A stretch of DNA of 64,000 bases from a virus (IMGVR_UViG_3300031576_000013:1-64000); one strand, 5' to 3'. Positions 3,530-62,919 are shown, counted from the first letter of the stretch. Program-made: numbers and translations. The notes: a model not told the origin generated them from the sequence alone.

Positions 3530-3554
3530 GCCATCTCAACATGAAAACAATCTC

Positions 3555-3584
3555 TTGACTTTGTATCTCATTCCGTAGTACACT
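3555..3584 (+). promoter_or_regulatory. Sigma70-type promoter for the histone-like gene
   Basis: TTGACT-18 nt-TACACT, followed by GGAGG RBS before 3619. Confidence 0.55.
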
Positions 3585-3618
3585 CGTTCCAGGTCGACAA
3601 CCCGGAGGAAATACGGCA

Positions 3619-4095: not shown

Positions 4096-4104
4096 AGGCT
4101 CCGC

Positions 4105-4305: not shown

Positions 4306-4323
4306 TTCCCTTATCGGACCAAA

Positions 4324-4577: not shown

Positions 4578-4623
4578 TCGAAACAAAATTCCATTTTCTG
4601 GGTTCCCCGATGACGGTAACGGT

Positions 4624-5190: not shown

Positions 5191-5849
5191 TGTTCGCAAA
5201 ATATTGGTGCAATGACTGCAAGTTCATGCGCCGTCCCGGCGAGTGTGATCACTCGCGCTACAAGATCGGTCCTACCGAACCAGCGAAGTCGACCGCAGTC
5301 CAAACAGGTATGAAAGATGTAGTCGACCCATTTGATGCGGGCATTAAGCCTCTTGTATGGTATGAGGCGCGCTCTATTGCCACACCGAAATTCGTAAAGA
5401 CTTCGTACTCGCAGCCGTTGCCTATCGACGCGGCCGGTATACATTCATCGTGTGGCGCACCGTTTTGTTGTTCCGATGAAAAAACGCCCAGGCTCTACCG
5501 GTCTTTCGATGACACGCAGGCCGAAGAGATCTTCTGGAAACTTAGTTTGCCGGTCGAAATCCCGGAAGCTTCGTGGGTTTCGTTTCGGCTCATTCACCAA
5601 GCCTCGTCTGGAGTGAGTGGATCGGTTGCTCTCCGTCTTCGATTTGGTGAAACACCTACCGATTCTTTCGCGCCAAGCATTCCACCGCTCAAGGTCTTCG
5701 GGTCCGGGATCAATCACCATGTGATCTATTTTCCGAATAAGGGAATACCCCCGATACAAACGATCAGTTTGTCGCGCAGCCCCAAATCAAACGACACTTT
5801 GATCGCCGATTGGATGCTGTTGGATGCGGGATTGGTTTGGGGGTCTTGA
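5187..5849 (+). CDS. Hypothetical protein: N-terminal Cys cluster plus a domain resembling the fibre tip of 60725..62230
   Basis: RSFDDTQAE...DTLIADWMLL versus RRFDDTTEE...TELVGDWNLL. Confidence 0.7.
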   Translation: MMFAKYWCNDCKFMRRPGECDHSRYKIGPTEPAKSTAVQTGMKDVVDPFDAGIKPLVWYEARSIATPKFVKTSYSQPLPIDAAGIHSSCGAPFCCSDEKTPRLYRSFDDTQAEEIFWKLSLPVEIPEASWVSFRLIHQASSGVSGSVALRLRFGETPTDSFAPSIPPLKVFGSGINHHVIYFPNKGIPPIQTISLSRSPKSNDTLIADWMLLDAGLVWGS

Positions 5850-43680: not shown

Positions 43681-44610
43681 TTAGACGCCGAAGACGCCAG
43701 TTGCCTTGACCACTGCGGGCTCGTGCATGTACTTCACGTCAAGCCGCAGCGAGACGACCGTGATCACCTGACCCGCCGAGATGTCCTCGCCCATGCGGAC
43801 GCGAACCTGACGATGGAACCCGAGGACGAAGTTCTTCGGGTCCGCAAGCAAGACGACGGTTTCGTTCGTACCGGCGCCGAGCGCGTCTGGAAACTCCGGG
43901 ACGCCGACGACGTCGTAGTCCTGGTACTTCGCGTCGGCTTGCGTTGCCAGCTGGATGTCGCCAAGGCTCGTCGCGCGGTTCGCGAGAGAGTCCTTGTAGT
44001 CGACTTTTGCCTGACGGTTCGTGAAGTAGGTGAGCGGCCCGGTCGAGAACTCGTCGGGCAGCGTCTTCAGCATGTCGCGGAGCACGTTCTTGGAGAGCGT
44101 GACACCGCCAGCCACAACGACGTTCGTGACTGCGTGCTTGATGAAACCGTCGAGTACCGCGAGGAGCGCGTCCGCCGACAGGGTGTCACCTTGCGCGATC
44201 AGGAAGTCCACGTCGCGAGCCACGGCTTCCGCCAGGGTCTCTGTGATCGTGTCCTTGTACGAACCGCGCTCGATCTGATCCTCGAGCACCTCGTCCGAGA
44301 TCCGAACCTCGGCCTTCACGAGCTTTGCGTCGAGCTCGATGAAGCTGAGATCGGGCCTTGAACGCTGCGCCACCGCGAGGGCCTCGTTCTCCACGCCCGG
44401 CTTGAGCACGCGCGAGCCGAAACGATGCTTGTCGCGTCGCTCCTTCGGACTCGCCATCGGTGTGACCATGATCCGCTTCATCAGTTCTGCGGATTTGATC
44501 ATCACTCGGAAGAAGCGATCCGCCTGCCTCGGAACGAGCAAGCCACCGGCGGCAAGGCCGGCTGTGTCGAGATCTGCCTTTTGCAGCAAGACCCTGTTGT
44601 CGGTTGGCAT
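43681..44610 (-). CDS. Major capsid protein (HK97 fold)
   Basis: GGLL.P.QADRF; ISDEVLEDQIE; D.L..QGD; DGFIK; PKNFV.G; AVVK. Confidence 0.93.
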   Translation of the reverse strand: MPTDNRVLLQKADLDTAGLAAGGLLVPRQADRFFRVMIKSAELMKRIMVTPMASPKERRDKHRFGSRVLKPGVENEALAVAQRSRPDLSFIELDAKLVKAEVRISDEVLEDQIERGSYKDTITETLAEAVARDVDFLIAQGDTLSADALLAVLDGFIKHAVTNVVVAGGVTLSKNVLRDMLKTLPDEFSTGPLTYFTNRQAKVDYKDSLANRATSLGDIQLATQADAKYQDYDVVGVPEFPDALGAGTNETVVLLADPKNFVLGFHRQVRVRMGEDISAGQVITVVSLRLDVKYMHEPAVVKATGVFGV

Positions 44611-44684: not shown

Positions 44685-45941
44685 TTACGCGTTGTAGTCA
44701 AGAGGGAAAAGTCGGGATTCCGAAGACCCGTTCATTTCGGGCGAAGTGACACGATCGCCGGGTCGTGCTTCGGCCTTGGTAAGCGCCTGGCGAAGATCGC
44801 CGTTCGACTTTTTGAGCGTGGCAAGTTCGGAATTGAGCGGTTCGACTGCCTTCGCCACGGCTTCGTTGATCATGCGTTCGGCTTCGCTGGCACTGATGCC
44901 CGGCTCTTTCTTTGCAGTTGCGGAGGGGTATTTCGAAGCGAGTCCCATGAGCAGCGTGTGGATCGCTTTCAGCTCACGCATTTCCTTTGCCGACGGCGCA
45001 TCCATGCTCTTCACGCGGTTGGCAAGAGACAGCGCGCGTTCTGCGGCTTCGGTCAAAATACGCGACATACGACCCGCGCGCTTTTCGACGACCGAGTCAT
45101 CGAGGGCGCCCAGAATTGCGCCGATCAGTTGCTGGAGCGAATCCATGTCGGTCGCGTCGATCATCACGCCCCCACGAGGGAACACGCCGTCGAGCTTCTT
45201 CGCGAGTTCGGTGATTGCTTCCTGCGTTGGCGCATCGGCGCTCGTGCTGGCCGACGCAAGCGCCTTCGCCACTTCCTCGATGTCGGCGCCGAGAGTCGCG
45301 CCGCTTTGTGTCGAATCCGGTTCTGGCTTTACCGGCGGTGGAGTCACCGTTTCGGTGCTCGTCGAAGCCGCATCCGATTCAGTCTTCGACATCGCTGCCG
45401 GCGCAGGGTACTTCTCTTTCACACCGGCGATCAACTTCCCGATCGCGGCGATCTCGGCGAGCAGCTTCCCGAAGTCACCTTCAGGCATTTTCTCGCCGCC
45501 GGCCTCTTTCAGCTTGTTGATCACCGAGGTCAAGCGCTCGAGCCCTTCGGTGAGCGTCGTCAACGCGACGGCGTCTTCCATCTTCGCCGAGTCCATCGCG
45601 TGAGTTGCGTCGTGTTCGTTTTTCGCGATGACGGCTGGATACGCATCTTCGATCTTACTCAGGCTGATCGAAACCTCGTGTGCTTCGTCGACGAGCGCTT
45701 TCTGTGTTGCCTCGTTTGCGTCCTTCAACTTGGTCACGATCGAGGTCAGACGCTCCAGGTTCTCAGCCAGCGTGGTAACGGTCTGAGAAACTGCTTTTTC
45801 AGTTAGCATGGAATTTTCTCCTTCGCGCTTTCTCAAAAGGAAACGTCGTTTGTTCGCGGCTCGATCAACCAAGGAAACCTCCTCGATCTCGAAATCACGT
45901 AGACGTGAGACTGACGGTTTCGTTTTGGATGTCAAGTTCAT
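44685..45941 (-). CDS. Capsid scaffold protein
   Basis: EIEEVSLVDRAANKRRFL N-terminus; repeated helical units (LERLTS..KLK.A); directly upstream of the MCP. Confidence 0.8.
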   Translation of the reverse strand: MNLTSKTKPSVSRLRDFEIEEVSLVDRAANKRRFLLRKREGENSMLTEKAVSQTVTTLAENLERLTSIVTKLKDANEATQKALVDEAHEVSISLSKIEDAYPAVIAKNEHDATHAMDSAKMEDAVALTTLTEGLERLTSVINKLKEAGGEKMPEGDFGKLLAEIAAIGKLIAGVKEKYPAPAAMSKTESDAASTSTETVTPPPVKPEPDSTQSGATLGADIEEVAKALASASTSADAPTQEAITELAKKLDGVFPRGGVMIDATDMDSLQQLIGAILGALDDSVVEKRAGRMSRILTEAAERALSLANRVKSMDAPSAKEMRELKAIHTLLMGLASKYPSATAKKEPGISASEAERMINEAVAKAVEPLNSELATLKKSNGDLRQALTKAEARPGDRVTSPEMNGSSESRLFPLDYNA

Positions 45942-45988: not shown

Positions 45989-48900
45989 TCAAGTAACAAA
46001 TGGCGCGGCCAAAATCGAGTAGACCGGATCCGCCTCCTTGATCGCGGTTCCACCTATCGACCATCCGGTAAATTCCCCCCGTTTTACGGCTTCCCACAGC
46101 TCGTCGTCGACGATTCGTGCCGCAAGCAACCAAGTACCTTTTTTTACTGGCTGCTCTGCAACCGTGAAGTCTAGCGGTGCGAGATACGATTCGAGGATCT
46201 TTACGCGACCATCAATCAATTTTCGGTGCATCAAACCGATATGGCCGTAGCGCTCCATGAACCCATGCGCTGCTTTGCGAATCTCGTCGGAGGAATAAAC
46301 GTCGTTCTGCGCGTCGACGGTCTCGGGTTCGAGAACGATTCCCAAGACGTAACGCTCCTCCTTCGCGGTTTCTTCGGCCTTGAACAGCTTGACCGCGTGT
46401 GTCCAGGGGCGAAGCTCCAGTTTTGAAACCGGCGTCGACGAGGATGTCGCTTCTTTCTCGACGATCTTTTCGTAGTCGCGTCGAAGCGCGTCGCAGATTC
46501 GATGGGCGGCTTCTTCGTCGTGGCCTCGCGTCTTTTGATCGGCTACGCAAGCCTCGAAATTAGCGAAGCCGGCGAAGGGTTTTTCGATCTCGACAGAAAC
46601 CTTCGCTTGCAATTGACATCCGAGATCCCAGAGCGGGGGAGGCGGTTCGGAAGCGCGCTTCTTGATTTCGTCGGGGTTGAGCATCGCGACGACTTCGTTG
46701 ACCGTCATCGGTGCCTCGTCGGTGACATCGATCACCGTTGGGGTGAATCCCGTGATCTTCCACTTGCCGGCTGTCATGCGGTTGAAGAGCACCTCCGTCA
46801 CTTCGATGCGTAGAACATCGCCCGATTCGGCCTTCACCTTGCTGTTGAAGGATTTGCCCGCCGGAGCATATTTTTTCCCGGCGAGCTCGATCAAGTTGGG
46901 CCAGTTGCCTTGTTCCTTCTCGGGAATTGGTCCGAAGGCGTAGAAATAGTTGAAGACGCCCGGCGAATCCTTGACCGGGTGCTTGTCGTAGACGATTCCG
47001 CGCACCTCGCGAATCAGCTTGATCTTCGCCCAACCGTCGCTTTCGCCTCCAAGAGAGTAGGTCGCATTCGCGGATTTGAGCATCGCGCCTTCGGAGCCTG
47101 GCGAGGCGGCTGCCTTCGCGATCAACGAGTCCAGGCTCTCATGCGTTCTCGCTGTGCCCAGCGCCGGTACGAGTTTGATGCGGCTGCTTTGACGCTTGTT
47201 GAGGAACGCTTCCAGCAAACGGCGGCGTTCGGCTTGATCTTTTTGCGTGATGTTTCCCTCGTCGGGCAAATACAGCGCGTCGAAAATTTGTAGTTGGACG
47301 TTTGCGTCGTCGACTACTCCGGTCCCTCGGAACCTGGCCAAGTCCCTGCGGGGCGTGGCGGCGCCGTCGACGAACTCCATGAATTCTGCATCGAGCACGA
47401 ATGGCCCAGGGAGTTTTGCCAGCTCGGCCGTGACGCCGGGCCAGTTCTTCATGTAGTTGCGCTGCTCGGTTTTCCGCGAAAAGAACTCTTCGGTGATAAT
47501 GAAAACGCGGTCGCCATCTTTCTGAAGGGCGACGCGAAAACCGTTCAGTTTCGGTTCGACGAGGATTCCGCTGTCGAGCAACGCGCCGGTTGCGAAGTCT
47601 TCGTGCAGCCGATCGAGCTCACCACCACGAAACTCGTTCGTCTTTCGGGCTGCGACCTTCATAGGCTTGAAGACCGCGAGCGGCTTCAGCTCCTTCCGAT
47701 CCCCACCTTTGTCGTCGGCGTCCTTGATCTTTCGCGGATCCCAAATCTGGACGTCCTCGATCACCGTCCCGTCTTGTAGAGAGACGTCGCGCACCTCGTG
47801 CGCCTTTGTGATCTTCTCACCGGGGACAGCGCGTGAAGGTTGTTTTCCGCGCTCCCATTGCCACAAATCACCGGCTTCCTCTTCGGCAACCAGCACAAAT
47901 ACCCCGTCATCGGAGACATCCGCTAGATCGCCTCCGCGTACACGGATCTTCTTGAACTGGCGTTGGTCATCTAGAAATTCGATCTTGCCCCTTGACAGAA
48001 TTCGCATCTGCGACGGCGTATTCTTCGAGGGATTGAATTCAACGCCGTGGACCTTTTCGCCGGGCGGCGCATCCCCTTCATAGGCAAGCAGCTTGTCGGC
48101 CTCCACGTTCGTGAGCGCACGGCGAATCACTGCGATCTTGTCGTTCTCGAAGGGGTCGCCTTCGAGTTGAAAATCCTCGATCTCATTCTCGCCGCGCTTG
48201 ATGAACAGGTGAAACACCTGCGAGGAAGGCGCGGCACGGATCACGACCTGGCCCTTGAACCGTTGCCACGTCAGCGTGTAGGGCGCTGCCTTCAATTGCT
48301 TGAGCAGTCGCGTAGCGTTTTCCGTAGCTATGGTTGCCGCGATCCGGTCCATAGCTTCTTCCACGGTCCGCGCCTCGACGATCTCCGGCGCGATGTCGGC
48401 TGAAGGCCAAAACTTCTTGGTCTTCAAGGTCAGTCGGAAATCGCGGTTGATCTGTACGGTCTCAGCCGTCACGAGATGAGCTTCGATCAATGCGTTGCGG
48501 GTCGCTTCGACCTCTGATGGCTTATCCTTTTCCCAGTAACGAAATTCAGGCGGAATCGCGTTCTTGATTCCGAGCGGAAGCGCGGATCGGCCCTTCGGAG
48601 GGAGTGTCTTCGTTGCAATCGCGCGGCGCCGCAGAACGCTGGGCGTCAGATCCTTGTTGAACATCGCAACCCAGAAAGCTTCGCCCTCCCGGGTGCGCCG
48701 GCCCGTCTCGACTTCTTCTTCGGACGCGTCCCCTCGGCCCACGAGTAATCTAAAAGTCAGCAGCCCATGAAATTTTTGATCGCCTTCGACGGCGTACTCG
48801 GCAAAGAACGGCTTGAGAATCAGGTGTGTGACTTGCGGGCGTGCGATTCGAACGATCACGCCTTCCTCCTCGGCGGTTGCGCCCACTTCGCCCGCCTCGA

Positions 48901-50533
48901 ACTTGCGCCCTTCGATTTCGAGCCAAATCGGCGGCTGTAGGGACTTCACGGCGGCGAACACGCGATTCGGCGCGTTCATTGGTTTATTCCAGTACGAGCC
49001 CTCCATGTTGAAGGTGACTGCGAGTCGTTTGCCTTCAGGTACGGTGTCTACATCAGGCACTTTTCCTGCGCGCTGGATCGCAAGCGTGAAACCCGTGAGG
49101 AAATCCTCGCCGGTCTTGACACGGAAATCTCCGTGAACCGACCGACCTCTGAAATGACTCTGGAATACGGCCGCGCGGGGTTCTTCCTTTTCGGGATAGA
49201 TCAGGATTGGGTTCTGCTGCTTCTCGGCGTCTTCGTCGCGCATATCGACGACGCGTTTTTCGGCGACGGGATGGACGACGAGATCGTAGAGATCTACGTA
49301 GCTCGTGTATGGACCGCAGCCACCGGTATCTGGATCGGAGTCGTCATGGAATTGAACTCGCTGCGAAATCTCCGGCGGTAGCATCCGACCGAGCCTGAAC
49401 TTCAAAACTTGCAGTGTCTTCTCATCAAGTGGTCCGTCGATGAGCACGTCGACGTCGTTCTTCGTTTCGCCGTTGTTCACGATCGAACCGACTAATCGAA
49501 CGACCGGTGCGCGAATCAGGAAGGGCTTCTCGAAGTGTTTGAGAACTTCTTCGAGTTTGAGTGGCGGGTATTCGCCCGTCGATCCCGGATGGATCGGAGC
49601 ATATCGATCGGTCTTGCCCGCCTTCGAAATATCATCGGTTTCTTTGGTACGTGCCACGCCTGAAGGTCCAATCACGAGGGGCTTCCTGCGGCGAAGCCGA
49701 CGCAGTTCGGCTTCGATTCCGAGTGGGTCTTCCACCTTGTCGACCAGCGCGCGAGCTTCGCGCGTCAGCTCGTCGTCAAAGGGGTGTTTCAAATCGCGCC
49801 GTGTGAATTCTTCGATCATGAACGCTTCAGCGTTCACCAGATCTTCGCGGCCAACGCCTTCCGCCGACAGCTTGTCGTTACCAGCGAAAAGGCTTGCGAA
49901 CGCGGCGTGCAATTCCCTGTCGAGCCGCTTGAGTTTTGCGTCATCGAAAGCCTTCAGGTTGCGAGGCGTGATCTCCGTCAGGTCGAACGTTGCGTGTTGA
50001 CCCGGAACCGTGTCCAGATCTGCCGTGGTCAGATCGCCCTCACCTTTTGCGACCGCCTCTTCTTCGAGATCGATCTCGGGGCCGTATCGCCGCCCGGGCG
50101 GTGTCTTCTTCAGCTCGATCGGAGGATCGAAAGCCCGAACCAGCTCCATCGGGATGTAGAACACCGGCTTGACCGGTTCGAACTCGGCCAGCGAGAACTT
50201 GTCGATCCCCTCACGCAGCTCCTTCGGGACGTCGTCGAGCGACGCGAACTCCTGCGGCTCTCGTAGAACCACGATCGCCCAGGCGAAGGTCGCCTTGGCC
50301 TCTGTCGGCTCGATCTCGTTTAGCAAGATCTGCGCTTCTCCGCTGCGTCCCTCTTGCTTGCGTCGAGACAGGACGCCTGCGCTCTTGTCCTCTTGAAGCC
50401 GTGCGACGAGCATTGGCGGGTCCGGCATCTTCAATACCGGCAGTGGGCCTGCCGGCATTTCGAACTTGCGCTGCTCTTCTGGGTTCCCCGGCAAGGGAAC
50501 GACCGCCTCAACGTGGGCGTTCGGGGTCGACAT
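45989..50533 (-). CDS. Polyprotein: nucleotidyltransferase + two LigD-like 3'-phosphoesterase domains + ATP-dependent DNA ligase + XkdF prohead serine protease
   Basis: LVGS..9..DVDVL (~aa 345); QSHFRGRSVHGDFR (~aa 460); ligase motifs EPKLNGFR (K995), LDAE, FDALY, EGAMLK, WAKIK; XkdF VLEPE.VDAQ.D...IGLMH...GWSIGG (~aa 1390-1500). Confidence 0.9.
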   Translation of the reverse strand: MSTPNAHVEAVVPLPGNPEEQRKFEMPAGPLPVLKMPDPPMLVARLQEDKSAGVLSRRKQEGRSGEAQILLNEIEPTEAKATFAWAIVVLREPQEFASLDDVPKELREGIDKFSLAEFEPVKPVFYIPMELVRAFDPPIELKKTPPGRRYGPEIDLEEEAVAKGEGDLTTADLDTVPGQHATFDLTEITPRNLKAFDDAKLKRLDRELHAAFASLFAGNDKLSAEGVGREDLVNAEAFMIEEFTRRDLKHPFDDELTREARALVDKVEDPLGIEAELRRLRRRKPLVIGPSGVARTKETDDISKAGKTDRYAPIHPGSTGEYPPLKLEEVLKHFEKPFLIRAPVVRLVGSIVNNGETKNDVDVLIDGPLDEKTLQVLKFRLGRMLPPEISQRVQFHDDSDPDTGGCGPYTSYVDLYDLVVHPVAEKRVVDMRDEDAEKQQNPILIYPEKEEPRAAVFQSHFRGRSVHGDFRVKTGEDFLTGFTLAIQRAGKVPDVDTVPEGKRLAVTFNMEGSYWNKPMNAPNRVFAAVKSLQPPIWLEIEGRKFEAGEVGATAEEEGVIVRIARPQVTHLILKPFFAEYAVEGDQKFHGLLTFRLLVGRGDASEEEVETGRRTREGEAFWVAMFNKDLTPSVLRRRAIATKTLPPKGRSALPLGIKNAIPPEFRYWEKDKPSEVEATRNALIEAHLVTAETVQINRDFRLTLKTKKFWPSADIAPEIVEARTVEEAMDRIAATIATENATRLLKQLKAAPYTLTWQRFKGQVVIRAAPSSQVFHLFIKRGENEIEDFQLEGDPFENDKIAVIRRALTNVEADKLLAYEGDAPPGEKVHGVEFNPSKNTPSQMRILSRGKIEFLDDQRQFKKIRVRGGDLADVSDDGVFVLVAEEEAGDLWQWERGKQPSRAVPGEKITKAHEVRDVSLQDGTVIEDVQIWDPRKIKDADDKGGDRKELKPLAVFKPMKVAARKTNEFRGGELDRLHEDFATGALLDSGILVEPKLNGFRVALQKDGDRVFIITEEFFSRKTEQRNYMKNWPGVTAELAKLPGPFVLDAEFMEFVDGAATPRRDLARFRGTGVVDDANVQLQIFDALYLPDEGNITQKDQAERRRLLEAFLNKRQSSRIKLVPALGTARTHESLDSLIAKAAASPGSEGAMLKSANATYSLGGESDGWAKIKLIREVRGIVYDKHPVKDSPGVFNYFYAFGPIPEKEQGNWPNLIELAGKKYAPAGKSFNSKVKAESGDVLRIEVTEVLFNRMTAGKWKITGFTPTVIDVTDEAPMTVNEVVAMLNPDEIKKRASEPPPPLWDLGCQLQAKVSVEIEKPFAGFANFEACVADQKTRGHDEEAAHRICDALRRDYEKIVEKEATSSSTPVSKLELRPWTHAVKLFKAEETAKEERYVLGIVLEPETVDAQNDVYSSDEIRKAAHGFMERYGHIGLMHRKLIDGRVKILESYLAPLDFTVAEQPVKKGTWLLAARIVDDELWEAVKRGEFTGWSIGGTAIKEADPVYSILAAPFVT

Positions 50534-50894
50534 GTAGCATCTCCGGCGCCCACGCGCTTACGTGCTTCGGCGGTTCCCACAACCTCCCGTCGAGCTCATT
50601 CCGCAAAGCGACTGGCAAAAAATCCACGGCCTTGTCGAGCGACCAGTGCAGATCGCCCTTCAAGATGCGAAACCACTTGATACAGATATCGCTGCGGCGC
50701 TTCACTTCGAGCTTCGATGGATTAGTCGCTGAGACTCGCGCTGCCGCACTCTCATTTCGTTCGAGGTCGTGTTTGAAGGACAGCGTGATCGCTTTGCGCA
50801 TCCCATTCAGCACGCGATCAAGCCCATTCGGCTCGTTGATCAGCGAGGCGAAGGGCGCGGGATCCGTCTGGCTGTCGTCCATAGCGGCGATCAT
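50508..50894 (-). CDS. Hypothetical protein
   Basis: 128-aa ORF between portal and protease. Confidence 0.65.
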   Translation of the reverse strand: MIAAMDDSQTDPAPFASLINEPNGLDRVLNGMRKAITLSFKHDLERNESAAARVSATNPSKLEVKRRSDICIKWFRILKGDLHWSLDKAVDFLPVALRNELDGRLWEPPKHVSAWAPEMLHVDPERPR

Positions 50895-50915: not shown

Positions 50916-51170
50916 CTACGTCAGCGTGATCAAACCGGTTTTCAGCTTCAATGCCACGCGGATGCCTTCGCCGTCTCTGGAGATTATCGCGTCAACTTTT
51001 CCCAGGCACTCTGGGCATACAACCATCGCGACCCCACCGCCGTATCTGACGGTCACTTGTGTCTCCAGCACGCTCACCCGTTTGCACGCACGACACGCAC
51101 CGACTCCCAGCGCTGCTGCCTTTTGCGCAGCTACAAAATCCGCGTACCCGGCCGGCCGATCCCCCGTCAT
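50916..51170 (-). CDS. Small Zn-ribbon protein
   Basis: CRAC...CPEC; ATGA-coupled to the portal. Confidence 0.65.
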   Translation of the reverse strand: MTGDRPAGYADFVAAQKAAALGVGACRACKRVSVLETQVTVRYGGGVAMVVCPECLGKVDAIISRDGEGIRVALKLKTGLITLT

Positions 51171-52954
51171 TTTTCAGGTATCTCCTCGCCGCCAGTTCCT
51201 ATTCCGGCTAACCGTTTATCATCGCCAGCTTCCCTGCGCCCCTGTGCGTGCCCGTTTGGCTCCTGGCGATGTTCGGCCCGGCCTTCCGAGGCGATTTGAC
51301 TTGTCAAAGCTCGAATCCTTCCAGCCACGCGCTCCCCCTCTTCTTCTGGATTCCTTGATGGGGAACCTTTTCGAGCTTCCTGAAGGGTCAACTTGAAGGG
51401 CTGTTGTGTCCACGGATCTGTCAAAACTGGCAGTTCGCGGTTGAACACGTCGGTCGCTAGCGCGCGGCCCTCAGCTGGTGTGAGAACGCCTGCGTCGGAG
51501 AGCGTAGCTACGATCTCGGCCAGCACTTCGGGATCTTTTGTCGTCGGAGAGTTGGACTCGAATTTCCAGAAGGAGATGTGAAGTTCAGGCAGTAACTTTC
51601 TATTTATCACTTCGTCGAACTGGTTTCGCAGCGGGGTGAAGACTTGATCTTCAGCTAGACGCAATGCGGCAAAAGCCGTGGCGCGATTGATCGCCCGGTC
51701 GCGCCCCACCAAAATTCGTGGCAATCGGAAGCTCGACCCGATTTTTTCCCAGTTGCCCTCGTCGTAGTTTTGAAACAATGCATCTTGCTGCTGCGCTTCG
51801 CGTAGCGGGACGAACTTCATCGACGGGACGATTCCAGACGTACCTCCGGTCGATTTTTGGCCTTCGGCTTCGAGGACAAGAATCTTGTGGAAGTTTTTTC
51901 GTCCTTTGATGTTGCTCTCGATGAACTCCTCGATGCGCGGCACAACCCCTTTAGCAAGCCGTCCGCCAGCGACGAGCAGCGCAAGCGGAGGGACGGTCTT
52001 GCTCTGGAAATAACTGAGGTTCACCTCGTCCAGTTCCCGGGAACCCAGAACAGCGGGTAGATTGCCGATCCATTGAGGGACTCCGTAAGTGGAACCAGGC
52101 GTCGGGATTGCGAAGTGCAAAATTTCGTTGGCGGGTGCGTCCAGTGGCGGCTTGTCGGGATCGGCTTCGAGTGCTGCCGGCGACGCATAAATCTTGCCTG
52201 TTGCTCGCGAGACGGTGCGTGGGTCGCCGAATTCTTTGAAATACGCCTTGATCTTGCCCTGAATCGGATCGATCTCGGCGAACTTGCGAAAGAATCGGCG
52301 TTGAACGACTTCCGTCGTCGAGATGCGTGTGGTTGGAATGCGTTCTTTTGTCTCAACAGGGATCGGATCGAGGGGCAGCAAACGCATCGTCACCGACGGT
52401 GCGAGCACCAACCGCGCCGGCATTATTCTGTTGTCGCGTAGGATTTCCCAATATGCGTTTCCAGTCGTCAGCAAGTCTCGACGTGTTCGAGAGCGCAGCT
52501 CGACGAAGGAGTAATCGGGGCAACAGACGGCAAAGAAGGTACGCAGGCGATTGATTTCGATGCGCGCAACTCTGCGTAATTCTTCGAGTTTTGCACGAAC
52601 GGCTTCGGAATCCGGCTCGACGAACGGCTCGCGGCGTTCCTCGCTTAGAACCAACCGTTCGACGATCATCTCGTCCCGGATATCGGCTTCGGCACCAGGC
52701 CGTGTGAGGTCAATTCCGGCAGTGTATTTGTGGCCGAACGCGTCGACGTTCGTGACGATCGCCTCAATATGCTGAGACAGCGACGACGAAAGCTCGTAGA
52801 GCTGAAGCAGCGTTTCGGGCGCGTACTTCGGTTCGAGGACGCCGGTTACGGCCTTTCCTTTTTGAGTGAGCGCTGTGAGCCACTCCACGGTCGAGACGGG
52901 GGCGTCCCTAAAGGTCGCCTTTCCAACGACGTTTTTCTCTTTCTTTTTCGGCAC
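51167..52954 (-). CDS. Portal protein (PBSX/HK97-like)
   Basis: DL..TGNAY.EI.RD; YFKEFGD; NEILHF; YGVP.W; FRLP.IL.G; NRATA; GVLTP.E.R. Confidence 0.93.
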   Translation of the reverse strand: MPKKKEKNVVGKATFRDAPVSTVEWLTALTQKGKAVTGVLEPKYAPETLLQLYELSSSLSQHIEAIVTNVDAFGHKYTAGIDLTRPGAEADIRDEMIVERLVLSEERREPFVEPDSEAVRAKLEELRRVARIEINRLRTFFAVCCPDYSFVELRSRTRRDLLTTGNAYWEILRDNRIMPARLVLAPSVTMRLLPLDPIPVETKERIPTTRISTTEVVQRRFFRKFAEIDPIQGKIKAYFKEFGDPRTVSRATGKIYASPAALEADPDKPPLDAPANEILHFAIPTPGSTYGVPQWIGNLPAVLGSRELDEVNLSYFQSKTVPPLALLVAGGRLAKGVVPRIEEFIESNIKGRKNFHKILVLEAEGQKSTGGTSGIVPSMKFVPLREAQQQDALFQNYDEGNWEKIGSSFRLPRILVGRDRAINRATAFAALRLAEDQVFTPLRNQFDEVINRKLLPELHISFWKFESNSPTTKDPEVLAEIVATLSDAGVLTPAEGRALATDVFNRELPVLTDPWTQQPFKLTLQEARKGSPSRNPEEEGERVAGRIRALTSQIASEGRAEHRQEPNGHAQGRREAGDDKRLAGIGTGGEEIPEK

Positions 52955-53421: not shown

Positions 53422-55527
53422 ATGTCCGACCAGTTCTTTCTCGGCTCGGTTTTTGTGAATTCCGACGCCGGAACTTTGACGCAGGGCGACGTAGTCGTTT
53501 TCGACTCGGCGACCAACGGAGGAGTTAAACGAACCAGTATCGCAGGCGCGTCCAACACCGCTGGTATCGTCGTAGACGGCGGTCCGACGGCGACTCAAGT
53601 TTCGATCGCGACGATTGGTGGCCAGCGAACTCGCATAAAGGTCGCTCTCGGTGATGCTATCGCGCGGCTGGACAAACTGGTTACAAGCATCACGCCGGGG
53701 GTAGCAAAAGTTGACAACACCGCTGGGCTGGGCGCGGTCTTCGCTGTAGCGATTGAGGAGAAAGCGTCTGGCGACGGAACGGAAGTCGACGCGATTCTGC
53801 TTCCTTTCGGGATTGGGGCTCCGACAGGTGGACCGGTCACGGGCAGCGGCGTTGGAACCCGTGTCGCTTTTTGGACGCCTGTCGGGGCGACGACGGATCT
53901 AGGCAGCGATCCGAGTCTTTACTGGGACAACACAGCCAAGCGCCTTGGTATCGGTACAACCACGCCGACAACCGATCTGGAAATCAAGAACGTCACAGCC
54001 GGCCCGAAGATCACGCTGCGCGCTGCTGGAGATATGATTGCAACGCTCTCGGTCGAGAGCGACGCGACGGCCAGTTTTGCCGTTTTCGATCCGGCGGGAG
54101 GTAGCACTGATCTGCTACTCAACGCAGACAACAACATCGTCGGAAACACTCCAGCCTACCAATTTTCTCCCAACGGCCCGACGGTAGATGCGAGCTTCGC
54201 TTCACAGATTACGACGCTGATCAATTTCGCAACTTATGATAGCGCGATCGCCCGGACAATAACCAACGCCGCTACGGTCGGCATCGCAGGTCCGCCTGTT
54301 GCCAGCGGCAGCGTCACCATAACGAATTCGTATTCTTTGTGGTCGCAATCCGGAAATGTGCTGATCGAGGAACCCGCCGACACGGCCATACTTACGGTCA
54401 GAGCGTCAGGTTCCAGCAATTCGCGTGTAGTCGTTCATTCCGTCGCCGACATTGCCGAATTGATACTTCAGGGTCCGGCTGGCAATGCGGCGATGTTTTT
54501 GGACGGAAATATTCTTCAAACCACCCTCAATACGGGCGGTAGTGTGCCTGACATCCAGGTGCACAGTGGTGGAACTTCCGTTGCTACGTACCACTATGCA
54601 ACGATCAGCAATACACCCCTTGCTGCGGGAACAGTAGCTGAACGCCATCAGTTCCTCATCGATCCCACTAATTATAGTGGGACTGGCACGATCACCATCG
54701 CAGCCACCTTGACGGTTTATGGCCCGCCTACGGTATCTGGAGGCGGCACCATCACGAACCCCTTTGCATCATGGGTTCGCGACGGCAGCGTCAGATTCGA
54801 CAGCGTTACGGGCGCGGCCAAAGTTTTCGCAATCGATCAGAAATCTGGCGCCGGAAGTTGGACTGTTGCATTCCAAGATAGTGCCGTAACTCAAGCGGTA
54901 ATCTTCTGGAGCACGTCTGAAGTAACCTTTCAGACCGTACCTGAAAATGTAGATCTCGTCCTCGGCGCGTCCGGCGACGCGACGTTGACGATCGAAGGTC
55001 CGAACAACCACTCGCTCGTAATGGTGGGCACTCAGCTTTCGCCCAATGCGCCGACCGGGTATTTCTATCTGCGGACGATGGCGGGAAAACCTGTCAGTTT
55101 TCCAACCAGCGAAGGCGACAGCGCAGTTCCACTCGTCGTCGATACCGTCAACAATCGATTCTGTTTCTATTCGAGCGCTGCGTGGCATTGCATAGGTGGC
55201 ACGGCGGTTGAGAACTTCGACATCATCAACACCGATTCGACGCTGCTAACCGCCGATCACGACACGATCGTTCGCACGACCAGCGGTACCATAACTGTCT
55301 TTTTGCCGCTGGTAAGTTCAGTTCCTAAAGGTAAGATGATCCGAGTTCGCACACGAATTGGCGCCGGTGACGTGATAATGACCCGTAGCGGCACCGACGT
55401 AATATCGGGTTCTACGGGTAATTCTCAAACATCGGAGACTTGTTCCGGGGCGAGCAACGTCTTGCAATTTATCTCCAACGGTCCTGCAACCGGCCGTTGG
55501 GATCTAATTCAGCGCGACGGAGTTTAA
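53422..55527 (+). CDS. Fibre/decoration protein with N-terminal capsid-cement-like domain
   Basis: GDVVV...GIVV...I...D.LVTS..PG.A; LYWDN..KRLGIGTTTP; Thr/Gly-rich. Confidence 0.7.
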   Translation: MSDQFFLGSVFVNSDAGTLTQGDVVVFDSATNGGVKRTSIAGASNTAGIVVDGGPTATQVSIATIGGQRTRIKVALGDAIARLDKLVTSITPGVAKVDNTAGLGAVFAVAIEEKASGDGTEVDAILLPFGIGAPTGGPVTGSGVGTRVAFWTPVGATTDLGSDPSLYWDNTAKRLGIGTTTPTTDLEIKNVTAGPKITLRAAGDMIATLSVESDATASFAVFDPAGGSTDLLLNADNNIVGNTPAYQFSPNGPTVDASFASQITTLINFATYDSAIARTITNAATVGIAGPPVASGSVTITNSYSLWSQSGNVLIEEPADTAILTVRASGSSNSRVVVHSVADIAELILQGPAGNAAMFLDGNILQTTLNTGGSVPDIQVHSGGTSVATYHYATISNTPLAAGTVAERHQFLIDPTNYSGTGTITIAATLTVYGPPTVSGGGTITNPFASWVRDGSVRFDSVTGAAKVFAIDQKSGAGSWTVAFQDSAVTQAVIFWSTSEVTFQTVPENVDLVLGASGDATLTIEGPNNHSLVMVGTQLSPNAPTGYFYLRTMAGKPVSFPTSEGDSAVPLVVDTVNNRFCFYSSAAWHCIGGTAVENFDIINTDSTLLTADHDTIVRTTSGTITVFLPLVSSVPKGKMIRVRTRIGAGDVIMTRSGTDVISGSTGNSQTSETCSGASNVLQFISNGPATGRWDLIQRDGV

Positions 55528-57475: not shown

Positions 57476-60400
57476 ATGTCGATCCACAAAGCTCTAGCAG
57501 CTACCGAAATCCACATTTTGTACGCGTTCTCGTTCGCGAGCGCCGCCGCTCGTGAAGGCGCGACTGGCTTGGTTGCAGCCGATGTCGGGAAGGTTGCATG
57601 GCAGACCGACGATAATTCCTTCTGGGTTCTTACCGACGAGAGCCCGGTCACGTGGGTTTCGCTCGGCGGAAGCGGCGGTTTCGCTTCGTCGATCGCGATC
57701 AAAAATCAGTGCCGGGTGGCGAGCACCGCGAACATCGCATCTCTGTCGACGCTGTTGACGCTTGATGGCGTGACAGTCGCTGCCGGAGATCGCGTTCTCG
57801 TCAAGGATCAAACAACGCTTAGTGAGAACGGCATCTACGTCGCCGCTGTCGGCGCCTGGACGCGAGCGAGCGACTTTGATTCCACCGCTGAGGTCAAAGG
57901 CGGCGTCCTTGTCGTTGTCTCGGAAGGCACGACGCAGTTTGATTCGATTTGGACGCTTGCGACCAACGATCCGATTACAGTCGGCGTCACCGGCCTGGTC
58001 TTCACTACCGGTACGGTTACGCTCACAACGGCGGCGCCAGCCGATGTCACCAAAGCCGCAGCCGTCGTCGGCGTAGCGATTACCGCTGCCAGGGCCGATC
58101 ACAAGCACGACATCTCAACGGCTGCCGCCGCTGAATCTATCGATATTGGCGATACGGCCGCCGAAGGTTCTGCTTCTTCGCTTGCCCGCTCCGATCATCG
58201 TCACGCCTTCCCTGCTCCCTCTTCTGGGTACCCCGTCAATGTCGAGAATTCGGAATCTGATGGGACCGCGACGACGTCCGCCAGATCGGATCACCAACAT
58301 AAGCTCGGCATTGGAACCACCAAGGGCGACGTTCTCGCGCATGATGGTACGACGTTTCAGCGGCTTCCGGTCGGGGTCGACAGTTTCGTCTTAACGGCCG
58401 ACACCGCCGAAGCAAGCGGCGTCAAGTGGAACGCACCGAGTGCCGCCGACTGGCCGATTGGAACTGTTCGGTTCTTCATGCTTTCGCCCACCGGGTTGGA
58501 CACGAACGTCGGTTTTGCCGATGGCGCTCCCGATGCTGCGAAAGCCGTCAAGACAATCGCTAAGTTGAAAACGCTGATCCCCCGTTTCGGCAACGGGCGT
58601 TCGGTCGTAATCGTGATCGAGGCTGGCGATTACTCTACCGAGGATCTCGAGTTCACCGATTACCATGCGTATCGGTTGTTTCTGGTACGTGGAACTGTGA
58701 CCGATCCGACAGGCGCATCTGTAGCGTTTGCCAATGACCTTGCAGACAAGATCGTCGATGGTTATGTCCGCGCACCAAGTACTGAAACGCTTGGTTACAG
58801 AGTCGATGGCGCTCCAACGGTCACATTATTTTCCTGCGTAAAAAACGTCGATGGTACTCCTCCCGGATTACCCGTCGAACCAGCCCTGCTCGGAATGCGT
58901 GTTCGCTTTGACGCCCTGACGCCGACCGTCGCATTGCGGAACGTGACGACGACTATCTGGAAAAACACTACAACTGCAATCACAGATTCAAATGATTTTC
59001 CAGCCGTACCTGTAGCTGGCGGTCCTGGCGTCGGCGACGTTTTCTATATCGAGCGGCCTGGTGTCGACGTCGATCAGTTAGTGGTCGATGGTATGATAAC
59101 GCGTACGAGGCTGGGAACATCGCCTACACCCATAGCGATCCCACCAATATTTTCAGGGATCAATGCTAAGGCTGTGACTACGCCGATCATAATACAGGGA
59201 AATGTTCGTATCGACCTGGTCGGTGTTCATGCTGCCGGAGCGACCGCACTTCCATTCACCGCGCAATACGTGCCAAATCTGCGAATGGTCGGCACGTACA
59301 CCGATGAAGCTGGCGTCACGATAAGTGTCGGTAATGGCGGGCGGATTGTTGCGACAGCTAGCACAATCACCGCTTCGTTGACCAACGTTGGTGGGCTTTT
59401 TCAACGTACCGCTTTTGTAGGCGGTTCAGGTGTTTTTGCAGCCGGCGGCGCGGGTCGAGCGTTCAACCTTTCCACCGGCAACGTCATCGTTGGCGGGCGT
59501 TTGGCGGCGTCAGGCGCCGGGAATCTGTTCAGCATCGGCAACGCCGGTGGCACCACCGCACGTCGACTTCGCTTCACGGCAAACACCGCCGGCGTCGATT
59601 TGGATTTGACCGACGCCAACCATTTCAAGGTTTTTGGCGTCGAGAACGACACGTTACCCGCAGGGATTGGACCGATCCGCTTGAATGGAAACTTTCCTTC
59701 CGTCGACCTTGATGACGTCGTCATGAGTGCTGCTGGGTCAGGGTTCGGCTTGAATATGAATTGTCGTCATGCCCGCGTGAACATGGGCACGACGACGGCG
59801 ATCACGATTACAACTCCGACGGGACAGGAGATCATCTCGGGAACCGGCGGCGGCGGCCCGGTGTTCAGGTTTGCAGACGTTCAGGATCGTCATATTACCG
59901 TTAGGGACGATCTCGGCAACGTCTTCACGAGACATCAAACTACCGATATCAACACAGCTCCCGAAATCGGGTTGACGCTCTCTGCGACTGCTTACCCATT
60001 ATATGCGCAATTCAGAGTCGTACGGCGGGTAACCGGCGCGGCCGATGGAGAGTTCGGCGTCGCCAAGGCTGATGCGGCGAGCACGTCGGATCGCATTCTC
60101 GGTGTCCTGATGACAGATACGTTAGTCTCGCCGCGTGGGCGCATCGCAACACACGGTCCCGCAGTCTTGGAATTCGACGCGGACCCGGGAACTGCTCCCG
60201 CGCTCGTTTATTTATCGCACCTGGACGACGGCAGTATCGCAGGTTTGGGGCGAATCACGCCGCCACCCAGCAACGGTTTGAACCAAAAACTTCGTCTTGG
60301 ACATTTGCTTCGCCGTTTAACGACGATCGCGCCGTTTCTCGGCGTCGTCGATCTGCATCCCGAGTTGATCCCGATAACATCGGACGGAGCAACGCCATAA
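57476..60400 (+). CDS. Large fibre/spike protein with three ARxDHxH repeats and a beta-helix-like body
   Basis: DRVLVKDQ...ENGIY domain; ARADHKH, ARSDHRH, ARSDHQH; TTKGD..RLPVG..VLTAD motif. Confidence 0.8.
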   Translation: MSIHKALAATEIHILYAFSFASAAAREGATGLVAADVGKVAWQTDDNSFWVLTDESPVTWVSLGGSGGFASSIAIKNQCRVASTANIASLSTLLTLDGVTVAAGDRVLVKDQTTLSENGIYVAAVGAWTRASDFDSTAEVKGGVLVVVSEGTTQFDSIWTLATNDPITVGVTGLVFTTGTVTLTTAAPADVTKAAAVVGVAITAARADHKHDISTAAAAESIDIGDTAAEGSASSLARSDHRHAFPAPSSGYPVNVENSESDGTATTSARSDHQHKLGIGTTKGDVLAHDGTTFQRLPVGVDSFVLTADTAEASGVKWNAPSAADWPIGTVRFFMLSPTGLDTNVGFADGAPDAAKAVKTIAKLKTLIPRFGNGRSVVIVIEAGDYSTEDLEFTDYHAYRLFLVRGTVTDPTGASVAFANDLADKIVDGYVRAPSTETLGYRVDGAPTVTLFSCVKNVDGTPPGLPVEPALLGMRVRFDALTPTVALRNVTTTIWKNTTTAITDSNDFPAVPVAGGPGVGDVFYIERPGVDVDQLVVDGMITRTRLGTSPTPIAIPPIFSGINAKAVTTPIIIQGNVRIDLVGVHAAGATALPFTAQYVPNLRMVGTYTDEAGVTISVGNGGRIVATASTITASLTNVGGLFQRTAFVGGSGVFAAGGAGRAFNLSTGNVIVGGRLAASGAGNLFSIGNAGGTTARRLRFTANTAGVDLDLTDANHFKVFGVENDTLPAGIGPIRLNGNFPSVDLDDVVMSAAGSGFGLNMNCRHARVNMGTTTAITITTPTGQEIISGTGGGGPVFRFADVQDRHITVRDDLGNVFTRHQTTDINTAPEIGLTLSATAYPLYAQFRVVRRVTGAADGEFGVAKADAASTSDRILGVLMTDTLVSPRGRIATHGPAVLEFDADPGTAPALVYLSHLDDGSIAGLGRITPPPSNGLNQKLRLGHLLRRLTTIAPFLGVVDLHPELIPITSDGATP

Positions 60401-60724: not shown

Positions 60725-62230
60725 ATGTCAGAGCTAACCACATCACAAGCCGCAATAATTGCCGCCGCACTCGCGCCCGGTTCTCGGACGCCTGTTCGTC
60801 TAGCAACGATCGTCTCAATCACGCTCTCTACGAATCAATCGATTGACGGTGTCGTTACTGCTACTGGCGATCGTATTCTTGTAAAGAATCAAGCGACCGC
60901 GAGCGAAAACGGGATCTATCTGGCCGCCGTTGGGGCATGGACCCGCGCTGCCGATTTCGATGAAGACGCGGAGGTCAAGGGCGGCGAGTTGATCCCGGTC
61001 TCGGAAGGTTCCACGCAAGCCGACACGGTTTGGCAACTGACGACCAACGATCCGGTCGTTGTAGGCGTCACGTCGCTCGTCTACGATTTGTATGGTCGAT
61101 TGACATCGACTGCGCCTGCGGACGTAATAAAAGCTGCCGCTGTAGTCGGTACTGCTGTTACAGCCGCACGTGCCGATCACAAGCACGATGTTACAACTGC
61201 CGCACCAGGCACGATTGCAGTAGGTGATGCAGCAACCGAAGGTACGGCGACCTCCCTTGCGAGATCCGACCATCTTCATGCGCTTACCGCTCCTGCGGCT
61301 CCTGCCGATGTCACTAAGGCCGCTGCGAGTGCAGGAACGGCAACTACTGTTGCTCGTGCAGATCACAAACATGATATTTCGACAGCTTCGCCAAGCGCCG
61401 CTCTTGACATTGGGGACAGCGCAGCTGAAGGCACAGCGACCAGCCTCGCACGAAGCGACCATCAGCATTCTTTTCCAGCACCGACAGCTGGCTATCCAGT
61501 AGATGTAGCGGGGACCGAAGCTGACGGTACCGCTACGACGCCTGCTCGTTCAGACCACCAGCATAAGCTCGGCATTCTAACGACGACGGGCGACATCATT
61601 ACGTACTCGACGCTGCCTGTGAGGCGCGCGGTAGGCACTAATGGCCAGGTTCTCACGGCGGACTCGGCCGAAGCAGACGGCGTGAAGTGGGCTGCGGCAG
61701 GTGGTGGTAGTAGCTTTCCCAAGTTTCACCTGTACGGTGACCAGCTCGCCAGCCCGAACTCGGCGAACTGGATCGTCAACGCGATGGCTCCTGCGGCGGC
61801 CGACTCGCTCAACGCCGCGCTCACCGTGCGGCGGTTCGACGACACGACCGAGGAGGGCGTCGGCTTCATACTTCGCATCCCCGCGTCGGCCACGAACATC
61901 ATCATCGGCATGGTGACCCGGGCGCAGACGGCCCCTGGCGCCGCCCGCACCGTCGGCGTCAAGCTCTACTTCCGGCAGATCCCGGACAACGCGGCCGTGT
62001 CCACGACGTGGGCCGGCGCCAACGACGGCAGCCACGTCCTAGCCGACATCGCCATCCCGGCGAATACAAACTTCCAGTACGCCACGCAGACGCTCGCGCT
62101 CACGGCGACCACGCCTGACCTCGTGGCCGACAAGCTCTACCAGGTGGAAGTGACGCGCATCAACCCGACGGCCGGCACGGAACTCGTCGGCGACTGGAAT
62201 CTGCTCGAACTGACGGCGGCCTTCTCATGA
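60725..62230 (+). CDS. Fibre protein with five ARxDHxH repeats and a C-terminal tip domain
   Basis: Paralogous to the N-terminal third of 57476. Confidence 0.8.
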   Translation: MSELTTSQAAIIAAALAPGSRTPVRLATIVSITLSTNQSIDGVVTATGDRILVKNQATASENGIYLAAVGAWTRAADFDEDAEVKGGELIPVSEGSTQADTVWQLTTNDPVVVGVTSLVYDLYGRLTSTAPADVIKAAAVVGTAVTAARADHKHDVTTAAPGTIAVGDAATEGTATSLARSDHLHALTAPAAPADVTKAAASAGTATTVARADHKHDISTASPSAALDIGDSAAEGTATSLARSDHQHSFPAPTAGYPVDVAGTEADGTATTPARSDHQHKLGILTTTGDIITYSTLPVRRAVGTNGQVLTADSAEADGVKWAAAGGGSSFPKFHLYGDQLASPNSANWIVNAMAPAAADSLNAALTVRRFDDTTEEGVGFILRIPASATNIIIGMVTRAQTAPGAARTVGVKLYFRQIPDNAAVSTTWAGANDGSHVLADIAIPANTNFQYATQTLALTATTPDLVADKLYQVEVTRINPTAGTELVGDWNLLELTAAFS

Positions 62231-62919
62231 GCGTGAAGGTAACATCGGCATCGAACAACAACTTGCAGCGTCCGTCGGACGACGCGGCGCTCGCACCGGC
62301 GCAACTGACCATCGCGTGCTGGATCAAGATGCATGTCGTGTCCGGGACGCAGGATCTCATCAGCAAAAGCGGCGTTTCGAGCGATCTGTCTTATGGATGG
62401 CGGCTCACATCTGCTGGCATTTTGGAACTGGGCACGAGCACAGACGGTACTTCGTTCAACACGACAAGTAGCGTCTCGACCATCGTAGTGGACACCTGCT
62501 ATCACCTCTGCATGACCCACTCCACGACGGCAAAAACCCTCTACATCAACGGCGTGCAGGATGCGACTGGCGCAGGTCCCGGCGCCCTGTTCAACAGCAC
62601 CGTCGCTCTGCACATCGGAGACCGCACCGACGGTGCAAATAACTCGAACTTCTTCATGGAAGACCTGCGGTTCTACAACCGGGCGCTGTCGCAGGCCGAG
62701 GTAGAGACGATTTTTGCGTGCCAAGGCACGGATGGCATCATGCAGGGTGGCATCGCGCGGTATCAGATGGACGAGGGGGCGCCGGGCGTTATTATTGGCG
62801 AGACTGCGCATGTCAAGGACGTGTGGAACAACGCGCTCCACCTCAGCGCCCTTGGCACCACGCGGCCATCATGGGAAGAAGGCTTGATTGTGCACGCAAG
62901 ACGGAGACGCGCAGCGTAA
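62227..62919 (+). CDS. LamG/ConA-like lectin domain protein
   Basis: TIACWIK; YHL..T; LYING; IG; EDLRFYNRALS..EV. Confidence 0.88.
   Translation: MSVKVTSASNNNLQRPSDDAALAPAQLTIACWIKMHVVSGTQDLISKSGVSSDLSYGWRLTSAGILELGTSTDGTSFNTTSSVSTIVVDTCYHLCMTHSTTAKTLYINGVQDATGAGPGALFNSTVALHIGDRTDGANNSNFFMEDLRFYNRALSQAEVETIFACQGTDGIMQGGIARYQMDEGAPGVIIGETAHVKDVWNNALHLSALGTTRPSWEEGLIVHARRRRAA

Follow-up and report, generated by a model that had tools for sequence, protein, structure and literature searches.

We analysed a 64,000-nucleotide stretch (the window) of the 94.8-kb IMG/VR virus record IMGVR_UViG_3300031576_000013, whose completeness is put at ~64% by CheckV. The record belongs to an uncultured phage, and public sequencing runs point to a cave metagenome as its origin; no RNA data set was among the runs listed for the stretch. 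Within its head genes, between the portal and the genes for a scaffold-like protein and the major capsid protein, lies one long open reading frame (ORF) encoding a polyprotein (Table 1). From the N-terminus, this protein carries a predicted ASCH/PUA-like barrel, a helical region, a minimal MNT-type nucleotidyltransferase (NTase) of the Pol-beta superfamily, two domains related to the phosphoesterase (PE) of LigD and referred to here as PE1 and PE2, an ATP-dependent DNA ligase and an XkdF-type prohead protease. A first-pass annotation, made from the sequence alone, had described a single 1514-residue ORF at this position in which a prohead protease is fused to enzymes of DNA end repair. The frame, its neighbours and an independent assembly agree with that description, and the motifs it quoted were located along the ORF where it had put them.

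Table 1. Features of the polyprotein and of the neighbouring head genes. Positions are counted from the first nucleotide of the window; counts out of 165 refer to representative family members onto which the domain profiles made in this analysis were mapped.
Feature	Residues	Position	Strand	Basis
Polyprotein ORF, 1514 aa	1-1514	45989-50533	(-)	Single uninterrupted ATG-started frame
ASCH/PUA-like beta-barrel	28-162	50048-50452	(-)	Predicted fold, pLDDT above 90
Conserved helical region	180-285	49679-49996	(-)	Helices in model; in 80/165 representatives
Minimal MNT-type Pol-beta-superfamily NTase	325-430	49244-49561	(-)	Invariant signature and modest fold match
PE1, expanded LigD-PE-like domain	445-645	48599-49201	(-)	Profile and conserved His460/His467/Asp469/Arg471
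Helical tail after PE1	646-705	48419-48598	(-)	In 162/165 representatives, always behind PE1
PE2, canonical LigD 3'-phosphoesterase fold without metal triad	749-898	47840-48289	(-)	Predicted-structure and profile matches
ATP-dependent DNA ligase adenylation domain	940-1180	46994-47716	(-)	Pfam and motifs
Conserved region after ligase core	1181-1300	46634-46993	(-)	Kept in 123/165 representatives
Linker between cargo and protease	1301-1384	46382-46633	(-)	Between mapped domains
XkdF-type (Peptidase_S78_2, PF14550) prohead protease	1385-1505	46019-46381	(-)	Pfam and PHROG head-maturation-protease families
Portal, upstream of polyprotein		51167-52954	(-)	phrog_12 E 3e-38; position kept in related loci
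Small 128-aa gene, portal/polyprotein gap		50508-50894	(-)	No family match
Scaffold-like helical protein, 418 aa, downstream		44685-45941	(-)	N-terminus matches start of PHROG 3017; position kept in related loci
HK97-type major capsid protein		43681-44610	(-)	phrog_1623 E 1.5e-76 and phrog_10 major head protein

An independent Logan assembly of the probable source run holds this whole stretch in one 57.9-kb contig at a depth of ~110, with zero differences, joints, indels or variants relative to the window, and the fused architecture was found again in dozens of independent IMG/VR contigs from unrelated metagenomes. The ORF is therefore real, and the mis-assembly that the first-pass annotation had listed as a possible refutation is practically excluded. 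Nothing was found in favour of an assembly or gene-calling artefact that joined separate genes, although in a few relatives (L048, L057 and L074) two or three neighbouring genes share the module between them. Set against the uninterrupted frame, the identical contig and the recurrence of the fused architecture in other metagenomes, such an artefact has a negligible probability.

The C-terminal protease is the domain that ties the protein to the head. Pfam assigns it to Peptidase_S78_2 with 103.3 bits (E 1.2e-29, cut-off 24, aa 1388-1499), confirming the earlier call, and a six-frame search of the record gave 108.5 bits. H1436 and S1492 are invariant across 21 homologues, and a search of the 94.8-kb record for XkdF, S78 and ClpP proteases matched this domain alone. 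The head-assembly position between portal and scaffold/capsid that goes with membership of PF14550 is seen both in the window and in related loci: among 80 IMG/VR loci, every one whose neighbouring genes can be recognised has portal, small gene, polyprotein, scaffold and capsid in that sequence. Proteases of this kind are built into the interior of the procapsid as it assembles. Because the gene lies in this order within the head block and XkdF is the only detectable prohead protease, loading of the cargo into the procapsid, as the first-pass annotation had proposed, is well supported, and by analogy with such proteases we strongly infer it. The XkdF domain shares 55-67% identity with its counterparts from Myxococcus, Corallococcus, Archangium and Polyangiaceae, and the host may accordingly be a myxobacterium.

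Cargo and protease are joined by a linker (aa 1301-1384) that is a candidate processing region, its role in cleavage being purely conjectural. A search upstream of XkdF for in-frame start codons from which the protease could be made by itself found none preceded by a convincing ribosome-binding site, and aa 1301-1381 showed no similarity to the scaffold protein. The linker also holds a short Cys-bracketed helical segment (F-x-x-F-E-A-C ... H-R-I-C-D-A-L).

The adenylation domain of the ligase matches DNA_ligase_A_M (PF01068) with 67.3 bits (E 2e-18, cut-off 26.2, aa 988-1172), and motifs I (EPKLNG, with K995), III (DAEF), IV (EGAMLK) and V (WAKIK) are in place, so that the ATP-dependent ligase recognised in the first reading stands. 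Matches in the PDB include archaeal ligases and Lig1 (E 1e-14 to 1e-11) and the LigD ligase domain 1vs0 at 1e-8, and in a comparison with the corresponding domain of a genuine LigD, from Comamonas, the core reached 73.6 bits. The conserved region that follows the core (aa 1181-1300), claimed earlier as an OB-like tail, had no sequence match to the PDB or to the LigD OB domain.

PE1 carries the motif H-x-R-G-x3-H-x-D-x-R at aa 460-471, and H460, H467, D469 and R471 are found in 158-161 of ~161 cluster representatives. In the P. aeruginosa numbering used in work from the Shuman laboratory, the corresponding LigD PE residues are His42, His48 and Asp50, which bind Mn, and Arg52, which binds phosphate. 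A PE1 profile built from 174 segments scores real LigD PE at 14.7 bits, compared with 4.3 for the best of 2000 shuffles, and its Q-x-H-f-R-G-x-s-v-H-x-D-x-R aligns in register with Q-K-H...L-H-Y-D-F-R of Comamonas LigD. A single LigD PE query matches PE1 of many members in two collinear pieces with an insertion between them. By protein-language-model features (Atlas), PE1 lies next to viral LigD_N clusters (scores 0.83-0.84), which we treat as a lead only. In the VIA structure comparison with 48,161 PDB representatives PE1 reached Z values of at most ~3.5, each target being aligned once and the LigD PE targets being taken by PE2, so that this value has no bearing on the fold of PE1. Invariant residues continue beyond the motif into the helical tail (P645, P646, G648, S650, W667 and R679).

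PE2 was recognised mainly through its predicted fold. An AlphaFold model of aa 435-930 (496 residues) made with the family alignment had a pLDDT (predicted local distance difference test) of 88, and the top six Foldseek matches to PE2 were all LigD PE structures with probability 1.00. VIA gave Z values of 14.7, 14.4 and 13.1 to 3p43, 3p4h and 3n9d, the last being P. aeruginosa LigD PE, over model residues 315-464; on 3p43, 120/124 residues superpose with a root-mean-square deviation (rmsd) of 2.4 Å and the eight-stranded beta-barrel of the PE fold is present. Sequence comparison agrees: the family profile matches 3p43 at E 1.6e-4, and a deep PE2 profile gives LigD PE 18.6 bits, the highest decoy score being 8.3. 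PE2 lacks the His/His/Asp metal site and has its own conserved motif, N834-x-T-K837-x-T839-P840. It had been described as a second, degenerate copy of the domain; its identity as a PE holds, but the fold is a textbook one and not degenerate. A shallow comparison of PE1 with PE2 (hhalign, 21-sequence alignment) showed no relation, and deeper profiles later related both; the PE2 profile also matches inside PE1 of the archaeal virus ANMV-1 protein (E 3e-13). On this profile evidence PE1 and PE2 are paralogous.

The NTase bears the hG[GS]...DxD signature at aa 348-362 (V348-G349-S350, D360, D362). Among 21-24 homologues the signature residues G349/S350 and D360/D362 do not vary, and the third carboxylate, D417, is almost constant. 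In an AlphaFold model of aa 1-445 made with the family alignment (pLDDT 81), aa 339-419 match MNT antitoxin 8xeo with a Z of 6.0 and HI0073 (1no5) with a Z of 5.9 (23% identity, 77/100 residues), both modest values for a small domain in a 445-residue model. Pfam NTP_transf_2 stayed below threshold (E 0.14), no NTase in the PDB was listed for the family profile at E up to 10, and Atlas scores to NTP_transf_2/Polbeta clusters were 0.93-0.95. The invariant signature, with the Atlas scores in support, upholds the original call of a Pol-beta-superfamily NTase, and the modest fold matches point to the minimal MNT type.

At the N-terminus there is, on the predicted fold, a sixth domain of the polyprotein, an ASCH/PUA-like barrel missing from the earlier list. 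It matches Zymomonas ASCH (5y6b) with a Z of 9.1 (123 aligned, rmsd 3.6) and EOLA1/CXorf40A with a Z of 8.8; TRIP4 ASCH, EVE and YTH rank lower. Taken together, matches to ZmASCH and EOLA1 have Z values of 9.1-8.6 and cover 114-124 residues, and the top matches all belong to the ASCH/EVE/YTH group. Pfam gave no match to this region. The helical region that follows (aa 180-285) had generic helical-hairpin structure matches only (Z ~6).

A HMMER scan with aa 320-930 recovered 902 clusters (50% identity) at E <=1e-3, 178 of them at <=1e-30, almost only from metagenomic viruses. PE1 and its tail are present in nearly all of the 165 representatives, followed by MNT (138), PE2 (130), ligase (~121), XkdF (100) and ASCH (39). 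Two orders dominate. One is that of the window, (ASCH-helical-)MNT-PE1-tail-PE2-ligase-XkdF; the other, found in 58 representatives, is permuted to MNT-ligase-PE1-tail-PE2, with or without XkdF. In some members the module is spread over two or three adjacent genes, for example with HEL-MNT apart from ligase-PE1-PE2-XkdF; besides the three already named these are L059, L065, L070, L078 and L080, and they are either genuine splits or frameshifts.

MNT, ligase, PE1 and PE2 occur together in ~120 of the 165 representatives, and because they stay together through permutation and loss of the protease they behave, as far as their distribution can tell, as parts of one pathway. This pattern, which mirrors the POL-PE-LIG combination of LigD, argues against the idea that the domains are independent effectors sharing one carrier, in which the MNT domain would, for example, modify a host protein (perhaps a HEPN RNase) by AMPylation in the manner of MNT antitoxins, and the PE-like domains would degrade signalling nucleotides. 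Among solved structures the NTase comes closest to MNT antitoxins, polyvalent proteins typically combine unrelated effectors, and Iyer et al. assign the Pol-beta NTases of such proteins to protein modification (PMC5512222), all of which would fit that idea; given the co-retention we consider it very improbable.

The cargo carried on XkdF does vary among homologues, as a survey suggested with the first reading had envisaged. Some members bear D12 and C5 DNA methylases, a Thoeris inhibitor (Tad3) or 2H/LigT domains, and others have an extra RNA_ligase (PF09414), AdoMet decarboxylase, metallo-beta-lactamase or inteins. All nine sampled close XkdF relatives from Myxococcus, Corallococcus and other genomes (L089, L094, L109, L112, L121, L122, L130, L158 and L093) have a D12 N6-adenine methylase ahead of a C-terminal XkdF. 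Because these nine bear the methylase in place of the repair module, and other family members carry a C5 methylase, Tad3, 2H or AdoMet decarboxylase, the cargo appears to be swappable and DNA-directed. Tad3, a type I Thoeris inhibitor (PF25185), was seen in a 1419-aa homologue (E 8.5e-8) and in another member (1.8e-7), and is a known anti-defence domain on the same XkdF carrier. The ASCH profile also matches within or next to the methylase region in L109 and L158. Hint/intein and LAGLIDADG homing-endonuclease domains are inserted or added in some family members, among them homologues P0022 and P0023, and P0023 additionally has a radical-SAM domain.

These observations lead us to regard as moderately probable that the protein is a capsid-targeted polyvalent polyprotein, in which a LigD-like end-repair cargo is loaded by way of the prohead protease, ejected with the DNA and used to repair or circularise the genome. 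The C-terminal XkdF would co-assemble in the procapsid, and the N-terminal cargo would enter with it because it is covalently attached. The protease would then cut the cargo free inside the head, where it would remain with the packaged DNA until both left for the next host; that the cargo is ejected alongside the DNA, and that it mends or circularises the genome in the new cell, we purely infer. There the MNT NTase might extend 3' ends by one or a few nucleotides, standing in for the AEP polymerase of LigD; RlaP offers a precedent for a Pol-beta NTase that cooperates with a ligase (PMC12776372). PE1 might remove 3'-phosphates or trim 3' ribonucleotides. PE2, having lost its metal site, might hold nucleic-acid ends, and the ASCH/PUA-like domain would probably add further nucleic-acid binding and hold ends together with it. 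Finally the ATP-dependent DNA ligase would seal the break, so that the incoming genome would be resealed or circularised before any phage gene is expressed.

Several findings weigh against this scheme. During maturation, prohead proteases and scaffolds normally exit the head or are broken down, and the cargo might be lost likewise. XkdF is missing from 65 of the 165 representatives, including the ANMV-1 protein, and the protease fusion is therefore not needed for the module to be useful. In ligase motif I the usual K-x-D-G reads K-x-N-G, with Asn replacing Asp. PE1 has no equivalents of LigD His84 and Tyr88: the segment opposite LigD E-D-H-P-x-x-Y reads K530-x-x-Q533-P534-x-x-W537, in an alignment stretch that is itself weak (2.4 bits), and K530, P534 and W537 are almost invariant. 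Pfam LigD_N (PF13298, cut-off 31.1 bits) had no match in the window polyprotein or its segments, and had weak matches in 3/21 and 5/47 relatives (best E 2e-4). For these two reasons 3'-phosphoesterase activity of PE1 cannot be assumed, and because of its insertion and the Gln/Trp in place of His84/Tyr88 its chemistry may differ from that of LigD PE. The early call of a LigD-type PE-like domain at this place thus stands for homology and the metal site, but not for these two residues. No Ku (PF02735) was matched in the 94.8-kb record, which is ~64% complete, and a host Ku is possible; the earlier remark that a Pol-beta-type NTase takes the place of an AEP-type POL without a visible Ku holds for the record, the polyprotein having no Pfam match beyond XkdF and ligase. 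Our literature search found no proteomics from virions of family members. MNT-type NTases, moreover, often modify proteins and not nucleic acids (PMC5512222).

Some of these points would equally suit enzymes that are loaded, or merely co-expressed late, act in the producing cell, for instance by healing and sealing nicks or ends of DNA during its packaging, and are then lost, so that nothing is delivered. The polyprotein holds the only PF01068 ligase of the record, the usual removal of prohead proteases and scaffolds on maturation would be no obstacle to such a role, and among the members without XkdF several still precede the capsid gene (L069, L071 and L076). A ligase for replication or packaging has, however, no obvious need of a protease tether, and the sister cargoes (Dam and C5 methylases, Thoeris inhibitor) better fit protection of DNA on entry. 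Virion-delivered enzymes are also an established theme (PMC5512222). Action confined to the producing cell seems to us unlikely.

The substrate of the module is more likely to be DNA than RNA, because DNA methylases are the sister cargoes, the ligase belongs with DNA ligases and LigD, and no 5'-kinase domain was found in the module. Repair of RNA could be envisaged for tRNA cut by anticodon nucleases, where the NTase would restore lost 3' nucleotides, 2',3'-cyclic or 3'-phosphates would be cleared by PE1 and the RNA would be resealed by the ligase. An association with RNA is common among ASCH domains; 2H/LigT, RNA_ligase (PF09414) or metallo-beta-lactamase 'cyclic phosphodiesterase' domains occur as additions in some members; and RlaP, a Pol-beta NTase that adds 1-2 nucleotides to damaged 3' ends, works with ligases (PMC12776372) in tRNA repair. 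Against this, the 5'-OH ends left by anticodon nucleases could not be joined by an ATP-dependent ligase in the absence of the kinase, as is established biochemistry; the matches of the ligase are to families of DNA ligases and to LigD; the co-fused methylases act on DNA; and TRIP4 ASCH binds dsDNA according to PDB titles. We rate an RNA-repair module as improbable.

Returning to delivery with the DNA, a more specific form of the proposal would make the module a Ku-independent LigD analogue of bacterial and archaeal tailed viruses, capsid-loaded and possibly pre-adenylated, that reseals restriction or CRISPR breaks or circularises the genome before expression. This form we put forward tentatively, as rather doubtful in all its particulars.

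In the remainder of the head block, a head-tail adaptor gene also lies downstream of the polyprotein. The small gene in the portal/polyprotein gap (128 codons) overlaps the polyprotein start by 26 nt and has a homologue in the same position in ~20 related viral loci. Residues 13-52 of the scaffold-like protein (motif EVSLVDRAANKRRF) align with positions 1-40 of PHROG 3017, which is annotated as 'head maturation protease', and to judge from this similarity a short module may be shared by XkdF-type proteases and their scaffolds. Pfam returned nothing for nine of the ten other large ORFs of the window. Those without a match include ORFs at 53422-55527 (+) (701 aa), which had no PHROG match either, 57476-60400 (+) (974 aa), 60725-62230 (+) (501 aa) and 2231-3529 (+) (432 aa). 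The ORF at 62227-62919 encodes a Laminin_G_3 / concanavalin-like lectin protein.

If the module is delivered, it would give phages a third route past DNA-cutting defences, besides DNA modification and nuclease inhibition, namely carrying their own mending enzymes in the capsid; this would be a repair-based, virion-borne counter-defence. For repair enzymology, it presents a LigD-like trio in which a ~100-residue Pol-beta NTase replaces the AEP polymerase and the phosphoesterase is duplicated into catalytic and non-catalytic copies. The protease fusion also points to a simple way, provided by nature, of bringing arbitrary enzymes into capsids. The methylase-XkdF relatives are in cultivable Myxococcus and Corallococcus strains, which could serve as a tractable system in which to test this loading route.

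The proposed delivery shares its theme with P1 Dar proteins, T4 Alt and internal proteins, and N4 RNA polymerase, which are built into the head, in some cases processed by the head protease, injected with the DNA, and act before phage genes are expressed. The internal proteins of T4 come from genes of their own and are brought in through targeting peptides or partner proteins, whereas the window cargo is covalently fused to the protease itself. The contents differ too: the virion-packaged enzymes T4 Alt, N4 virion RNA polymerase and P1 DdrB (PMC5512222) belong to a group made up of methylase-helicase, ADP-ribosyltransferase or RNA polymerase, and here the cargo is a repair module.

Abundant as it is in metagenomes (~900 clusters), the module is absent from cultured phage collections bar one archaeal virus record: among 50,697 deposited phage and virus records the only match was ANMV-1 (KP703175.1). 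Its protein AJP62006.1 carries the module in the permuted order, MNT-ligase-PE1-tail-PE2. It differs from the window protein in having 866 aa and neither XkdF nor ASCH, in belonging to an archaeal virus and in being annotated only as 'ATP-dependent DNA ligase'. In ANMV-1 (3200-5800) a 'MutT-like hydrolase' stands before the module protein and an unannotated 1166-aa protein after it.

RlaP resembles the module in being a Pol-beta NTase functionally tied to a ligase (PMC12776372). It differs in its NTase family (PF10127), in being cellular and stand-alone and in acting on RNA; it is likened to the MNT domain here by function.

Bacterial LigD combines POL, PE and LIG domains and acts in end joining with Ku. 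As in LigD, nucleotide-adding, PE-fold and ATP-dependent ligase domains are found here in one polypeptide; PE2 superposes on LigD PE (Z 13-15), and PE1 retains the Mn-binding His/His/Asp and the Arg. In LigD, however, POL is an AEP primase-polymerase, and here there is a minimal Pol-beta NTase. The viral protein also has two PE-type domains, one without the metal site and the other with an insertion and changed at the His84/Tyr88 positions, is encoded by a head-module gene, ends in a protease and has no Ku in its record. By analogy, the polyprotein would work like LigD but is not LigD.

The closest parallel in construction is with the virion-borne polyvalent proteins of phages and conjugative elements described by Iyer, Burroughs, Anand, de Souza and Aravind in 2017 (PMC5512222). 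These are large multidomain proteins whose genes lie among those of the virion and which are predicted to be packaged and to travel with the DNA, and their listed cargo includes DNA methylases, 2H phosphoesterases and Pol-beta NTases; an assemblin-like peptidase, if present, is always C-terminal and probably processes the polyvalent protein during assembly (PMC5512222). The window protein likewise has several unrelated enzymatic domains, a virion-gene locus and a C-terminal assembly peptidase. It differs from the described examples in that the paper has no XkdF or LigD and mentions ligases only as never occurring with 2H, and in that the Pol-beta NTases it treats belong to conjugative elements of firmicutes, with protein modification as their assigned role; it does not describe the MNT-ligase-PE-PE module with its ~900 clusters and two orders (PMC5512222). 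We found no description in the literature of a capsid-packaged ligase or of a LigD-like module. Because the 2017 paper describes a C-terminal assembly peptidase on polyvalent proteins, the carrier principle is already known; what is new is the cargo, an undescribed and widespread LigD-like module.

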